From a virus (lineage: Duplodnaviria; Heunggongvirae; Uroviricota; Caudoviricetes): a stretch of DNA of 20,029 nt. Both the position numbers and the translations under genes were made by a program. Below, piece after piece: positions 2,518 to 15,230 of the stretch. The stretch covers positions 1-20,029 of IMG/VR virus record IMGVR_UViG_2687453449_000004; one strand, given 5' to 3'. Within the stretch, counting starts at the first letter, position 1; each line of letters opens with the position of its first letter. Below the pieces are notes generated by a model. That model saw only the letters and a program-made list of their open reading frames with translations. It was not told where the DNA came from and ran no database searches.

Positions 2518-4407
2518 ATGAAATCCGAAACGCTAACCATCCAGCAAATTTTCCAAAATCAACGACAATATCGTGTTCCATTCTATCAACGTGCCTACGT
2601 ATGGACGCAACGAAACCAATGGTCAGCTTTGCTGGAGGATATCTTCGAAAAAGCACAGAGCCGACTTTCGGGAACAAAACCAACCCCTCATTTCCTCGGC
2701 GCGGTGGTGCTGGAACCTCAACTCAAAAACAGCTTGTTAGGTGTAGATACCATACATATTATTGACGGCCAGCAACGTTTAACCACTCTTCAATATATTC
2801 TGGCATCCATTCGATTATCATTGCGTGCTACAGGCCTTTCTGAACTGGAAGGGTTAGTATTGACTTGCTTGAAAAATACAAACGAAGCAACGATGAGAAA
2901 TAAAAAGGTAGAATGCTTCAAACTGTGGCCAACTTTTCGAGATCAAACTCATTTTATTCAAAGTCTTAATGTTGATAATATTGACGATCTCCGTAATGTA
3001 TTTTCTGATAGCTTCACGCAACATGGTACGTTACGTAAACATTTCAACCACCCGCCGTCACTAGAGGCATTATGGTTTTTTACTGAAGCCTTTATAAAAT
3101 GGATTAAAATAGAAAACCGCTCACCACAAGAAAATGCTGTAGCACTAATTGAGGCTGTCTTGACGGATCTGAAACTGGTAAGCATATTTCTCGAAGCTGA
3201 AGATGATGCCCAAATAATTTTTGAAACATTAAATGGGCGAGGAGCGGAACTTCATGCAACGGATCTTATTCGCAACTATATCTTTATGTGCGCTGAGCAT
3301 GAAAATATTAATACTATTGAATTATATGAAAATGAGTGGAAGATCTTTGAAGATAAATACTGGTCGGAAAAGCAACGCCGTGGACGTATTAATAAACCAC
3401 GCATGGAGTGGCTTGTACATGCGACATTGCAATCAGAAAGGCAGCGTGAAATTGATCTGTCTCGCCTTTACAATGAGTATCGTGATTATGTAAGTAAGGA
3501 CTTGCCTTCACAACGAGCAGATCTGCAAGTAAAGCGCCTCAAACAATATGCATCACAATATAAAGAATTGGTTGGTGGTTTTGGCACAACCCCAATCTCA
3601 CACTTTGGACATCGCATCGCAGCCTATGATGTGACGACACTCTATCCGCTTGCTTTGTTCATTTCGATAGCTAACATCGCCGATGATGAGAAAGCAGCCA
3701 TGTATAATGATCTTGTCTCCTACGTAGTACGAAGATCCGTATGTGGCCTGACGCCAAAGAATTACAACAATGTATTTATGAATGTATTGCGACACTTGTC
3801 TAAAACGGAAATTTCCAGTATTGAGTTACGTAATATCCTCAATAGCTTAAATGGCGAAGCCTCACGTTGGCCTGGGGACTCAGAATTTCTCAACGCTTGC
3901 ATCAATGCTCCACTTTATCCTGGCAGGCTCGACGCACCGAAAATGCGCTCAATGTTAACGGAACTTGAAAGAGAACTTTGTCGCCAAGTGAAGACAGAAA
4001 AGCCTGATGTTCCAAATCTTTCTAATCTCGATATCGATCATCTTATGCCTCAAAGTTGGTATTCCTGTTGGCCTCTCGAAAATGGTCATATGGTGACAAA
4101 TTCAGATGCTACGGTAATGAACCAAATTGTTCTGTCTGGAACCGATCTTACCCCTGAACAGCTACTGGTAAGGAAACGGCAACAAGCGATAGCTACGTTG
4201 GGAAATCTAACTTTGCTTAACCTTAGCGTAAACCGTTCCGTTCAGAATGCTGTATTTCTGAAAAAACGTGATGCTCTCATCGTCCACACCAATCTACGAC
4301 TGAACATACCACTTATACTTAAGGATAAATGGGATGAGAGTGAAATACTGGAGCGAGGTAAAAAGTTGGGGGAAATTGCATTGAAAGTATGGCCAAAATA
4401 CGATTAA
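2518..4407 (+). CDS. GmrSD-family type IV restriction endonuclease (N-terminal DUF262/ParB-like NTPase domain, C-terminal DUF1524 His-Me finger nuclease domain)
   Basis: 629-aa ORF. N-terminal motifs FYQRAYVW and IIDGQQRLTTLQ (DGQQR signature) and C-terminal DIDHLMPQS ... LGNLTLLNLSVNRSVQN fit the DUF262+DUF1524 fusion architecture. AT-rich relative to the prophage structural genes. Confidence 0.8.
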   Translation: MKSETLTIQQIFQNQRQYRVPFYQRAYVWTQRNQWSALLEDIFEKAQSRLSGTKPTPHFLGAVVLEPQLKNSLLGVDTIHIIDGQQRLTTLQYILASIRLSLRATGLSELEGLVLTCLKNTNEATMRNKKVECFKLWPTFRDQTHFIQSLNVDNIDDLRNVFSDSFTQHGTLRKHFNHPPSLEALWFFTEAFIKWIKIENRSPQENAVALIEAVLTDLKLVSIFLEAEDDAQIIFETLNGRGAELHATDLIRNYIFMCAEHENINTIELYENEWKIFEDKYWSEKQRRGRINKPRMEWLVHATLQSERQREIDLSRLYNEYRDYVSKDLPSQRADLQVKRLKQYASQYKELVGGFGTTPISHFGHRIAAYDVTTLYPLALFISIANIADDEKAAMYNDLVSYVVRRSVCGLTPKNYNNVFMNVLRHLSKTEISSIELRNILNSLNGEASRWPGDSEFLNACINAPLYPGRLDAPKMRSMLTELERELCRQVKTEKPDVPNLSNLDIDHLMPQSWYSCWPLENGHMVTNSDATVMNQIVLSGTDLTPEQLLVRKRQQAIATLGNLTLLNLSVNRSVQNAVFLKKRDALIVHTNLRLNIPLILKDKWDESEILERGKKLGEIALKVWPKYD

Positions 4408-11517: not shown

Positions 11518-11892
11518 TTACGCCGCTGCAATCTTCAGCAGTTTGATGGCCTGCGAATCGACCAGCATCCCGCCGGTGCGCTTGGTGGTATAAAAACCGA
11601 CAAACGGTTTATTGGTGTACGGGTCACGCAGAATGCGGGTGCCGATACGGTCAACGATGGTGTAACCCCGTTTGAAGTTACCAAATGCAATGGCTTTCGC
11701 ATCAGCGGCGATAGCCGTCCTGACGGTACTCATCCCCGCGCCAATCTGACGGGCAATGGTTTCAATTGATGGCCAACACACACCTTCGTCATTACTGAAA
11801 TCAGCCAGGCGGGCCATAATTGCCACGCTGGATAATTTCATGCCTGATGCAGCGCAACCATCCCATACATAGCCGGTTAATTTAGTGCTCAT
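11518..11892 (-). CDS. Helix-turn-helix replication-initiator-like protein (phage O / replisome-organiser N-terminal domain only)
   Basis: 124 aa containing LADFSNDEGVCWPSIETIARQIGAGMSTVRTAI, a winged-helix pattern typical of phage replication initiators. No helicase-loader or C-terminal domain follows. Confidence 0.45.
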   Translation of the reverse strand: MSTKLTGYVWDGCAASGMKLSSVAIMARLADFSNDEGVCWPSIETIARQIGAGMSTVRTAIAADAKAIAFGNFKRGYTIVDRIGTRILRDPYTNKPFVGFYTTKRTGGMLVDSQAIKLLKIAAA

Positions 11893-13138: not shown

Positions 13139-13831
13139 ATGAACATAGGAAACCGAGTCAGACAACTTCGCCAAGCGAAGAACATGAAAATCGCCGATCT
13201 CGCTGAAGCGATAGGAGTAGATGCGGCGAACATCTCGCGCTTAGAAACGGGTAAGCAAAAACAATTTACCGAACAAACACTGAGTAATATTGCCAAGAGC
13301 TTAGGTGTTGATATTGCTGATCTCTTTACCTCTGCCCACAAAAGTAATACTGTATATAAAAACAGTAATAATGAGGATGTTGCGCAGGTGAAGGATGTGT
13401 TCCGTATTGAAATGCTGGATATCAGTGCCAGTGCGGGAAATGGCCTTATCCAGGGCGGTGATGTCATTGATGTGATTCATGCCATCGAATACAGAACTGA
13501 TAATGCTGTATCAATGTTCGGCGGACGACCAGCCAATCACATCAAAGTTATCAACGTTCGTGGGGACAGTATGTGTCCAACCATTGAGCCAGGAGATCTC
13601 ATCTTCGTTGATGTCAGCATCAATCAGTTTGATGGTGATGGTATATATGTCTTTGGTTTTGATGACAAAATATACGTTAAAAGACTTCAAATGATTCCTG
13701 ACAAACTGCTGGTGATTTCTGATAACCAGATTTACCGTGAATGGGGAATTACTAGCGAAAACGAACACCGATTCATGGTCTTTGGAAAGGTCTTAATCAG
13801 TCAGTCGCAAACCCTTAAGAGACATAATTAA
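13139..13831 (+). CDS. CI-type prophage repressor (N-terminal HTH, C-terminal S24/LexA-like autopeptidase); CohE-like
   Basis: 230 aa; HTH at the N-terminus, Ala-Gly (ISASAGNG) candidate cleavage site, Ser nucleophile in GDSMCPTIEPGD and Lys in YVKRLQ. Confidence 0.9.
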   Translation: MNIGNRVRQLRQAKNMKIADLAEAIGVDAANISRLETGKQKQFTEQTLSNIAKSLGVDIADLFTSAHKSNTVYKNSNNEDVAQVKDVFRIEMLDISASAGNGLIQGGDVIDVIHAIEYRTDNAVSMFGGRPANHIKVINVRGDSMCPTIEPGDLIFVDVSINQFDGDGIYVFGFDDKIYVKRLQMIPDKLLVISDNQIYREWGITSENEHRFMVFGKVLISQSQTLKRHN

Positions 13832-13849: not shown

Positions 13850-13875
13850 CGGCCACCGAAAGGTGGCTTTTTATT
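13850..13875 (+). terminator. Rho-independent terminator after the repressor gene
   Basis: GCCACC-GAAA-GGTGGC followed by TTTTTA. Confidence 0.75.
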
Positions 13876-13884
13876 ACCTATAAA

Positions 13885-13940
13885 TTTGGATATCTCGCAA
13901 ATATCACTTGCATATCTCGCAATTTAATTTTATCTTTTGT
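13885..13940 (+). promoter_or_regulatory. Putative pL-like promoter with two direct ATATCTCGCAA repeats (oL-like)
   Basis: Repeats at 13890-13900 and 13912-13922 (22-bp spacing); TTGCAT -35-like and TATCTT -10-like hexamers at 17-bp spacing. Confidence 0.4.
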
Positions 13941-14089
13941 TCCAGACCAACTACAGGATTACAACAAAATCTGGTTGCAACACGGTGCATGTGTCGTAAG
14001 CAGTCAGTAAATGTCAAAAACGAACAGGCAGGACGCCCACGAAGTAGCCGCCTGGGGCATATGAAGTCCAGGATGATTCGTTAGCAACA

Positions 14090-14125
14090 AAAAAGCGCCC
14101 TACAGGACGCTTAGCTCTTTAACAA
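14090..14125 (+). promoter_or_regulatory. boxB-like hairpin followed by a boxA-like element (GCTCTTTAACAA): candidate antitermination (nut-like) site
   Basis: AGCGCCCTacAGGACGCT imperfect hairpin, then GCTCTTTAACAA at 14114-14125, matching the rrn/lambda boxA core; located in the leader of the early-left operon. Confidence 0.45.
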
Positions 14126-14170
14126 TCTGGTCCCCATCAACAAGTAACTGATAACTTGAGGAGATGTGAA

Positions 14171-14377
14171 ATGCACAAAACAGAACCCAAAATCGTCGCG
14201 CCTGGCTACACAGATGAGGAAATTTATGAGTGGATGACAAAGAAGCTGGCAGCTATAAACCAGCTTCGTGAAGTGCTGTCTTATCGACAGGAAACAATAG
14301 ACTCCTTAAAAAAACTGGATCAGGAAATCACGGTTTTATCACAGGATGTTACTTTAGATATTGTGCAGACAAATTAG
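14171..14377 (+). CDS. Small hypothetical protein (68 aa) in the early-left operon
   Basis: ATG at 14171 preceded by GAGGAG; the track ORF begins at an upstream TTG (14156). Not Arg-rich, so not an N-like antiterminator. Confidence 0.45.
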   Translation: MHKTEPKIVAPGYTDEEIYEWMTKKLAAINQLREVLSYRQETIDSLKKLDQEITVLSQDVTLDIVQTN

Positions 14378-14783
14378 GATCCCATTCATTTTCGTCAAAA
14401 TCATCAAAGTGATGAATTTGTGATCTCCAGTCTCGATAATCTAAAAATTTCTGGGCGGTTACGCTTATTTTATCAAGTGTGAGTTCATCCTGAATTGAAA
14501 GAAGAAGTTCATCAAATTTCATCTCATTAATCTGTTTTGGCATCCAGTGATGCTTCATCAGAATAAGGTGAACCAGAGCCTTTTTCCCATTCAACTGATT
14601 ATAGGGAGTGCCGAATTTCTTCCGGTGCTCATGTAAGACAAGGTCCAAAAGAGTAAGTAATGTTGCCCTTGATTCAACTTTGCTTATTTCGACTGATGAC
14701 ACTACCCCACTGATTTCAATGCCCCGATACTTTCCAACATTTTCACAGTGGGATTTGTACAGCGTATAGATATTACCGGACAT
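14349..14783 (-). CDS. Hypothetical protein (144 aa), oppositely oriented moron within the early-left region
   Basis: AT-rich ORF with AAGGA RBS; convergent 29-bp overlap with the preceding small gene; no recognisable motifs. Confidence 0.5.
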   Translation of the reverse strand: MSGNIYTLYKSHCENVGKYRGIEISGVVSSVEISKVESRATLLTLLDLVLHEHRKKFGTPYNQLNGKKALVHLILMKHHWMPKQINEMKFDELLLSIQDELTLDKISVTAQKFLDYRDWRSQIHHFDDFDENEWDPNLSAQYLK

Positions 14784-14798
14784 TTCTTTTCCTTTTGC

Positions 14799-14850
14799 GT
14801 TGTTGGGGATAACCAGATTAACCGAATCCTTGTTGTTGGGGAATAACCAG
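14799..14850. repeat. Two direct repeats TTGTTGGGGA(A)TAACCAG in the upstream region of the 144-aa gene
   Basis: Copies at 14799-14816 and 14830-14850, read directly. Confidence 0.8.
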
Positions 14851-14859
14851 GTCCACCTC

Positions 14860-15230
14860 GCCTGATGTGGCTAAAAGCAGGCACATAACAGCTAAGTATT
14901 TTCAACCAGAGAGAATCCTTAGCGTTGTGGTGAATGCGGCTCAGCGCACGCGGGTTAAGGTTGAGGCTGACAGTCGACCTTCTGTGGATACCCACCCGCC
15001 TGGTGTGCAACCTTCGCCAGGCACCGGGAGGCACCCGGCACCACAACTTTATGCTGTGTGTAGTCCTGGCGGTACCAGTTTGTACCCTTGCTTCCGGCTG
15101 GTACCGTCCTTTTTACAAAACAGAGAAGAGCATCACCGGACGACGGGCTCATAACCCAATCCATCCGGGCGGCTGCCACCGCAGGTGTTCTTCTCTGTTT
15201 TGTGGAGAAACTAATCGGCCTTGCAGGGTC
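14860..15230 (+). other. GC-rich non-coding block with strong secondary-structure potential (candidate structured RNA or processing site)
   Basis: No coherent frame, only mutually overlapping ORFs on both strands. 18-bp long-range stem 15115-15132/15186-15203 (one G-U) and 11-bp stem 15068-15078/15098-15108; further small GC hairpins. Confidence 0.35.

Follow-up and report, generated by a model that had tools for sequence, protein, structure and literature searches.

A predicted minus-strand terminator beside a conserved rrn-type boxA at the edge of an antisense cargo cassette in lambdoid prophages

The locus discussed here is the leader of the early-left (pL) operon in a 20,029-nucleotide stretch of viral DNA (the window; positions 1 to 20,029 of IMG/VR record IMGVR_UViG_2687453449_000004, Caudoviricetes), where a short hairpin is followed by a boxA of the type found in ribosomal RNA (rrn) operons. 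On the plus strand, the locus starts with the gene of a cI-like repressor (13139-13831; helix-turn-helix (HTH) and S24 peptidase domains, Pfam Peptidase_S24 at 6e-19 and HTH_3/HTH_26), followed by an intrinsic terminator (13851-13868; a 7-bp stem then TTTTTATT in the terminator scan) and by two exact copies of the OL operator repeat ATATCTCGCAA (13890-13900 and 13912-13922), akin to the operators between cro and cI. The repeats are overlapped by a pL-like promoter, TTGCAT-17-TATCTT (13908-13913 and 13931-13936), whose hexamers were recognized by eye and which the promoter/terminator scan of the window did not call; 13908-13936 is presumably the pL promoter, a weak one by consensus. Next come a structured leader RNA that we call E1 (14016-14087), the hairpin and the boxA, and an open reading frame (ORF) of 68 amino acids (14171-14377; phrog_1744, PHROG 6e-35 over its full length). 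On the opposite strand lies a gene of 144 amino acids (14349-14783; phrog_5286, PHROG 1.5e-90) that we call the cargo gene and whose product has no Pfam and no PADLOC match. The 68-amino-acid ORF and the cargo gene are convergent and their 3' ends overlap by 29 nt, a layout shared by a diverged phrog_1744/phrog_5286-like pair in locus L127. Together, these features bear out the setting that a sequence-only reading of the window had given to the hairpin and boxA, with a pL-like promoter 5' and the first early gene 3' of them, as well as its remark that the small downstream protein is not arginine-rich; no N-like protein is encoded in the window.

The plus strand at the flagged site (14090-14125) reads CAACAAAAAAGCGCCCTACAGGACGCTTAGCTCTTTAACAATCTGG: the hairpin AAGCGCCCTACAGGACGCTT (14093-14112) is separated by a single A (14113) from the boxA GCTCTTTAACAA (14114-14125). 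That a hairpin and an rrn-type boxA core stand in the pL leader is thus confirmed, and the window contains a single exact copy of the 12-mer, when 0.00 copies are expected from 100 dinucleotide shuffles (0.14 are expected when one mismatch is allowed). The hairpin had been read as an rrn-type boxB, a reading that overlooked the minus strand, on which the hairpin and TTTTTTGTT together receive an intrinsic-terminator score. In the terminator scan, the minus-strand call consists of the hairpin AAGCGTCCTGTAGGGCGCTT then TTTTGTTGCT, with 8 pairs at 14112-14093 and a U-rich tail at 14092-14083 (UUUUGUUGCU); behind the 8-bp stem, the U-tail UUUUGUU follows two closing A-U pairs. The predicted fold has -11.0 to -11.5 kcal/mol for the minus strand versus -6.5 to -7.5 kcal/mol for the plus strand, where a weak hairpin does form, and the minus-strand fold is the more stable in all 15 natural variants (mean of -9.9 versus -5.6 kcal/mol). 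In these variants, G.U pairs of the minus strand correspond to C.A mismatches of the plus strand, and the extra substitutions found in L125 and L088 keep the pairing on the minus strand only, so that the evolution of the hairpin follows the minus strand. From its stability and U-run on the minus strand and its constant position 3' of a minus-strand gene, the hairpin appears by sequence to be the intrinsic terminator of the antisense cargo gene and not a boxB. Such a terminator would stop cargo transcripts from running into pL and cI. Another terminator-like hairpin of the minus strand lies inside the 68-amino-acid ORF (14267-14242).

An antisense cargo cassette of about 780 bp (about 14085-14870) has the flagged 36 bases as its left edge; within the early-left operon, it is flanked by E1 on one side and by the yfdP/Q/R-xis-int genes on the other. 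A minus-strand ORF stands next to the module in 32 distinct contexts, with its stop codon 10-225 nt past boxA, and these cargo ORFs come from no fewer than five unrelated families (phrog_5286, that of the window, 1244, 6315, 7681 and unclassified ones), none of them giving a convincing PADLOC match to a known defence gene. The conservation among relatives that the earlier reading had made a test of its proposal was observed: the motif is kept in E. coli genomes and in several phages and is not a product of chance. Of 5426 complete E. coli genomes, 1531 have a match to the 131-nt stretch 14005-14135, in which E1 and the module lie, and about 1086 carry at least 80% of it; the stretch is also present in phages Kati, SfIV, PhiR29, PhiR49 and Kp4882-1. 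Among the 40 E. coli matches listed, no annotated feature lies under the stretch.

The boxA itself (GCUCUUUAACAA, plus strand), an exact rrn-type 12-mer, is a candidate binding site for NusB/NusE (S10) in the pL transcript. Its occurrence was followed in 130 loci that were gathered through E1 alone, boxA not being a criterion. The hairpin is present in 30 of these loci and boxA in all 30 of them, with positions 1-9 invariant and C or A at position 10, while A, C or T may precede boxA, the loop of the hairpin is variable and similarity ends about 6 nt past boxA. The boxA of the window and all its natural variants (C/A at position 10) fit GYTCTTTAANA, the functional consensus drawn from rrn, suhB and mutational data (PMC5725501). 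Across E1 loci totalling 1.39 Mb, this consensus occurs 39 times at this site and 2 more times in the pL direction, the background being 2 plus 2 matches against 2.6 expected per strand, and it is found nowhere in the right operon of these loci. In every locus boxA has the orientation of cI and pL and lies 3' of the OL operators and a promoter-like site, from which we infer that it is transcribed; as the motif is written, it reads correctly in the pL direction only. In species-representative genomes (one genome per species), boxA lies at most 150 nt downstream of E1 for 15 of 71 E1 copies, when about 0.01 would be expected by our own calculation. These 15 cases span at least six sequence contexts, and the hairpin is absent from some of them (L363, L380 and L397). 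In a further locus, L131, boxA stands 3' of a plus-strand terminator and 5' of another antisense gene. The E1 loci of the SfV type, which have no cargo cassette, have neither hairpin nor boxA, and therefore, among loci of the window's kind, boxA accompanies the antisense cargo. The window element is absent from a published list of 407 candidate BoxA sites, and a literature search with the boxA string returned a T7 construct sequence as its sole match.

In L380 (Kluyvera) and L363 (Xenorhabdus), boxA is followed by a common non-coding stretch of a few hundred nucleotides, about 100-330 nt after E1; in L380, the next plus-strand ORF is about 530 nt away. The stretch has no Rfam match. It may be a further long untranslated RNA shielded by boxA.

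Directly 3' of boxA begins the left arm of a long-range inverted repeat, AATCTGGTCCCCATCAACAAG (14124-14144, plus strand), which starts at the last two boxA bases and whose right arms (14800-14819 and 14829-14842, plus strand) lie 17-60 nt beyond the cargo start codon. The duplex between the arms has an energy of -29.6 kcal/mol, equalled by none of 300 shuffles, and a partner is found 500-820 nt downstream of the post-boxA sequence in most of 61 contexts. The arms change together from one cassette type to another (ATATCCCC/GGGGATAT, GGTTTGGTGA/TCACCAAA, CCTATTAAT/ATTAGG, ATGACT/AGTCAT and ATACCCC/GGGGTAT). In an alignment of 41 arm pairs, 83.8% of the cells are paired versus 26-49% in slid controls, double-sided changes occur at 16 of 20 pairs and wobble-type cells number 55 on the plus strand versus 23 on the minus strand. 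The repeat is absent from L131 and from nut-type contexts. For rrn, it is proposed that the Nus complex brings the stretch 3' of boxA to its complement past 16S, which creates the RNase III stem (PMC8632103); likewise, the post-boxA sequence at our locus is predicted to pair with a distant complement in a putative processing stem. The identity with phage T7 described at the end of this report includes TCTGG, the start of the repeat arm, and these bases may therefore belong to an extended boxA context and not to the arm alone.

By BLAST, the most widely conserved part of the leader is 14016-14084, and not the flagged bases. This part belongs to E1, whose covariance model matches the window once, on the plus strand (14016-14087, 94.1 bits). 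E1 is made of two covarying stems, P1 (14019-14024 with 14077-14082) and P2 (14051-14055 with 14068-14072), of an invariant core (14026-14050) and of a conserved (G/A)AUGA motif (14073-14076). In the alignment of 51 distinct copies, 94.3% of the cells are paired versus 20-44% in slid controls, and double changes are seen at 10 of 11 pairs. The core AGGCAGGACGCCCACGAAGUAGCCG, of 24-25 nt, is also invariant in a small alignment of BLAST hits that were not selected on the core. The exact 24-nt core is present in at least 120 viral contigs and at 71 places in the species-representative genomes, almost all of them Enterobacterales of about 25 genera, including Escherichia, Xenorhabdus, Yersinia, Pectobacterium and Erwinia. 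E1 is always downstream of cI and on the same strand, with a -10-like hexamer 15-21 nt before the core in many loci (as seen by eye), and it is single-copy in whole phage genomes; neither a second, right-operon copy of E1 nor one of boxA was found in the window or in the whole genomes of SfV and SPN3UB. Rfam 15 gave no match at its gathering threshold in the window, including E1 and the flagged bases, nor in four related loci, and for E1 and the flagged bases it returned, at E<=10, only terminator-shaped noise on the minus strand. Literature searches with the E1 core and the repeat arms found nothing, a mention in King et al. 2011 (on HK639 put) being still possible. E1 is thus an unannotated structured leader RNA of many lambdoid Enterobacterales prophages and stands outside Rfam.

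What E1 does can be proposed by rough estimate only. It is not simply a substitute for N since it coexists with N and nut in Xenorhabdus. It could act on RNA polymerase or on another conserved host factor during early-left transcription, a tentative proposal that we would put ahead of the others; a binding site for some phage or host protein is rather doubtful, and we consider unlikely, to the same degree, a role as 5' stabilizer or processing element and some function other than these. A hammerhead or kink-turn reading of the GAUGA motif was rejected by eye, since the junctions would not suit either fold.

A second conserved leader element (…AACGCGCAGNAGGU…UAAACGUUCCGCUGGCCGGCG…) follows E1 in leaders of the SPN3UB type (L005, SPN3UB, and L006, mEp237) and stands in place of E1 in Kp4882-1 (L007, 1940-2005). 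By eye, it can be drawn as stem I of HK022 putL, with AUCG/CGAU, CGGUG/CGCUG, UAAAC and a U at the position of U28; stem II of putL is absent from it.

The type of antitermination at this leader was also considered. No hidden N gene emerged: none of the first ORFs 3' of E1 in the viral and phage loci proved arginine-rich or N-like when they were clustered and looked through, and the Pfam and PHROG scans of the early-left ORFs of the window gave no N-like or arginine-rich protein. A lambda-type nut site is not present either, as there is no GNRA-like boxB 3' of boxA, where the repeat arm AAUCUGGUCCCC... stands, and the sole local hairpin 3' of boxA (CAAGU...ACUUG) is confined to the cassette type of the window. 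With neither N-like protein nor boxB in the window, N-independent antitermination of the Nus type, as in rrn and CRISPR (clustered regularly interspaced short palindromic repeat) leaders, is a reasonable reading. The earlier suggestion of an rrn-like process relying on host factors alone therefore stands in part: boxA is even more rrn-like than had been noted, given the long-range arm directly 3' of it, but the hairpin is probably not the boxB. The link that had been made between boxA and a missing N does not hold, since SfV-type relatives without N have no boxA and Xenorhabdus prophages encoding N-like proteins carry boxA at this place. Several of these Xenorhabdus prophages present E1, then boxA, then an N-like protein with an arginine-rich motif. 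L396 and L400 have a boxB of the GCGCUGAAAAAGCGC type after boxA, like classical nutL. These Xenorhabdus loci look like a classical N/nutL arrangement preceded by E1, and small proteins with arginine-rich N-termini were noticed in L400, L396, L397 and L390 (MHNVHGYNNARKRRHERRKEQQ; AARRYERRAAFLAKK). A P22-like nut site with the same boxA is found in L318.

The idea of a put-like RNA suits another element, E1, which lies 10 nt upstream, although E1 does not belong to the HK022 put family. The putL and putR sites of HK022 and HK639 were reconstructed from the genomes and from a cryo-electron microscopy paper, and homology of E1 or of the flagged bases to put was rejected: blastn-short found nothing and the covariance model of E1 found nothing in HK022 and HK639. 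The motifs ACGAAC and CAGGAUGA, common to put and E1, lie in covarying stems of E1 and were therefore taken as coincidence. The presence of E1 in the pL leader of lambda was likewise rejected, as the start of that leader, CAGCAGGACGCAC, resembles the core but is not matched by the covariance model. The lambda pL transcript begins with AUCAGCAGGACGCAC…CACCAUGAAGGUGA, just ahead of the nutL boxA (L422, 540-590, minus strand of the locus), and these bases resemble the core start CAGGCAGGACGCCCAC; this likeness may be a vestige or due to chance.

The explanation that we prefer, with a probability of about 0.55, is that of a self-insulated antisense cargo cassette which pL transcription crosses with the help of Nus factors and boxA. 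It builds on what sequence and comparison provide: a predicted terminator on the minus strand, a boxA with its conservation, its orientation and its setting, and complementary arms on either side. That Nus factors load at boxA, that transcription is protected from Rho and that the helix is delivered or processed are steps that we infer. As the hairpin is weak on the plus strand and has no U-run there, pL transcripts would pass through it and then expose a consensus boxA. Through this boxA, RNA polymerase would acquire NusB/NusE (S10) along with NusA, NusG and SuhB, as in rrn and CRISPR leaders, and the loaded polymerase would resist Rho across several hundred bases of antisense and mostly untranslated RNA. 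In the most speculative step, the bases following boxA would pair with their partner past the cargo, looping out the antisense RNA and perhaps allowing its processing.

Several points weigh against this explanation. boxA always co-occurs with an antisense gene, a linkage broken only in L131 and in the hairpin-less loci of Xenorhabdus and Kluyvera, and because of this constancy a minus-strand role of the boxA complement, as a conserved 3' untranslated region (UTR) directly ahead of the terminator, is inseparable by comparison alone. The variants are closely related, so the invariance of the 12 bases is in itself modest evidence. Complementarity was the criterion by which the arms were selected, the left arm varies more than the right, and the plus-strand wobble bias is weak given the base composition. 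In the window, 14171-14377 is a translated ORF of the plus strand, which lessens the need for protection from Rho, and the GC skew of the crossed RNA shows no strong rut-like bias of C over G. If E1 itself antiterminates, boxA would be partly redundant. Finally, the hexamers of the pL promoter, recognized by eye, make a weak match to consensus.

Four rival explanations have to be weighed. Everything might belong to the minus strand: the terminator, a 3' UTR containing the boxA complement and the inverted repeats would all serve the cargo mRNA, either as a 5'-3' panhandle that stabilizes it or as a small RNA derived from its 3' UTR, and the boxA match would be a leftover or due to chance. In favour of this, the hairpin clearly is a minus-strand structure, boxA is always 10-225 nt from a minus-strand stop codon, the right arms sit in a 5' UTR position, 17-60 nt upstream of the cargo start codon, and the inverted repeat can form on either strand (-26.0 versus -29.6 kcal/mol; 79.9% versus 83.8% of cells paired). 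We nevertheless judge this explanation unlikely: an exact boxA 12-mer is written in the pL direction where none is expected, its permitted variation stays within the functional consensus, and it recurs after E1 without this hairpin or cargo and also within classical nut sites. In L131 it stands 3' of a plus-strand terminator, the same 18 bases occur in a sense-strand leader of T7, and wobble pairs favour the plus strand by 55 to 23. Less probable still is that the inverted repeats work as DNA-level sites, that is, as ends of a mobile or exchangeable cassette or as recombinase sites, with boxA merely near the junction. The arms do frame the variable cargo precisely and differ from one cassette type to the next; many leaders that are mosaic in other respects have the cassette at one fixed site, and SfV-type loci have neither arm. 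However, no transposase or invertase accompanies the cassettes, every recognized cargo ORF is antisense and in the same orientation, hence without sign of inversion, and many differences between arms are of the G.U type, tolerated in RNA and not in DNA repeats recognized by proteins. In any case, such sites would be compatible with the RNA model and do not exclude it.

The two remaining rivals keep boxA on the plus strand. The rrn leader has the order boxB-boxA-boxC, boxA being the key element and boxB dispensable (PMC8632103), and the sequence of hairpin, 1 nt and boxA mimics this order, so that the sequence-only reading saw a plus-strand boxB hairpin and boxA jointly forming a nut-like site. 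A plus-strand hairpin of -6.5 to -7.5 kcal/mol can indeed form, but it is the weaker one in 15 of 15 variants, with C.A where the minus strand has G.U, and boxA occurs without this hairpin; with boxB dispensable even in rrn, this joint site seems to us very improbable. The least probable is a suhB-like attenuator, in which Nus factors at boxA would repress translation of the 68-amino-acid ORF and promote termination by Rho. boxA lies 46 nt 5' of the ATG at 14171, within the 50-nt criterion for targets of the suhB type (PMC5725501). Against it, most cassette types have no plus-strand ORF after boxA and have a minus-strand gene there, and phrog_1744, the family of the 68-amino-acid ORF, accompanies only the cargo of the window type.

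The preferred explanation can be extended to the whole leader, a reading that we hold as no more than tentative: lambdoid Enterobacterales prophages would share a standard plug-in cassette hosting an antisense gene expressed in the lysogen and following the logic of rrn, in which a Nus-loaded boxA shields the polymerase from Rho and an arm is delivered to its complement, so that the antisense RNA is looped out and possibly excised by RNase III, and E1 would be a new class of leader RNA acting on the host transcription machinery. To our knowledge, boxA-only, N-independent Nus action outside rrn has so far been shown for suhB, for one toxin gene and for CRISPR leaders. Here, boxA occupies a fixed early-operon site in a prophage family present in about one fifth of complete E. 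coli genomes. If true, the reading would explain how antisense cargo can be expressed by the lysogen from inside an essential lytic operon without breaking it, and it would extend to mobile elements the delivery from leader to complement known in rrn. It also corrects a likely annotation error, as the terminator can be mistaken for a boxB, and brings to light E1, a structured RNA that is abundant yet unannotated and has the same 24-nt core in genera from Escherichia to Xenorhabdus.

Regarding the rest of the window, the prophage is, judging from its gene content, a defective one of the SfII/SfIV type. Its early-left operon ends with integrase and excisionase (PHROG scan of the window ORFs). 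In an ORF of the minus strand (11518-11892), the translation resembles in its N-terminal half the HTH region of O-type replication initiators and in its C-terminal half the end of an HK97-type major capsid protein; this fusion points to the loss of replication, late and head genes by deletion, and hence to a defective prophage. Upstream of the yfdP-like gene, an STnc100-like RNA region (14894-15116, plus strand) matches RF02076 with 43.1 bits, below the gathering score of 47 (E of 5.4e-8). This sequence is also present in SfV, whose homology resumes near there. The match sits in a conserved non-coding stretch of about 450 nt located 5' of the yfdP-like gene, and 93 of the examined loci have, 3' of E1, an ORF that reads through it. 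Outside the phage early region, an ORF of 629 amino acids (2518-4407, plus strand) contains IIDGQQRLTTL, which resembles the DGQQR signature of nucleases of the DUF262/GmrSD type.

Several known systems can be compared with this leader. Like the nut sites of lambda and P22, composed of boxA, a spacer and a boxB bound by N, it has a boxA in the pL leader; unlike them, it has no boxB after boxA and no arginine-rich protein in the window. In T7, also a phage without N, CGCTCTTTAACAATCTGG lies between promoter A3 and gene 0.3, 63 nt downstream of A3 (413-430 of L423; 812-829 of the record), and is identical over 18 nt to cassette variants and over 17 nt to the window. The RNase III site R0.3 follows this boxA, which stands 5' of a local processing hairpin and of a sense gene, with neither antisense cargo nor long-range repeat. 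E1 resembles the put sites of HK022 and HK639 by its size of about 70 nt, its two stems, its position in the pL leader, often within about 10 nt of the start site, and its occurrence in lambdoid phages without N, and its very high conservation is compatible with the binding of a host machine; it differs from put by the lack of similarity in sequence or covariance model, by being single-copy without a right-operon copy and by its coexistence with N/nut in Xenorhabdus. The cassette as a whole recalls the phage morons, made of promoter, gene and terminator, as a self-contained cargo gene with its own terminator between conserved phage modules, but it is antisense to the host operon and adds a boxA and flanking complementary arms for the traversing transcript. 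The nut-like site of rrn has a hairpin that serves the same strand as boxA, a GU-rich boxC and rRNA between its arms, whereas in the cassette the hairpin appears to serve the opposite strand, such a boxC is missing, and the arms bracket RNA antisense to a cargo gene, with Nus binding and RNase III cleavage being only predicted. What they have in common is an identical 12-nt boxA core with a hairpin just 5' of it, a post-boxA sequence that pairs with a distant complement to bracket a long RNA which is untranslated or not meant for translation, and, for the cassette presumably, no need for a phage protein. Finally, boxA is known to shield untranslated CRISPR arrays from Rho (PMC7665894). Our boxA is found in a prophage early operon, ahead of a stretch antisense to a gene, and it shares with the boxA elements of the CRISPR and suhB type a stand-alone consensus in an untranslated leader, outside rrn and without N (PMC7665894, PMC5725501), and with those of CRISPR the proposed role of shielding a non-coding RNA from Rho.

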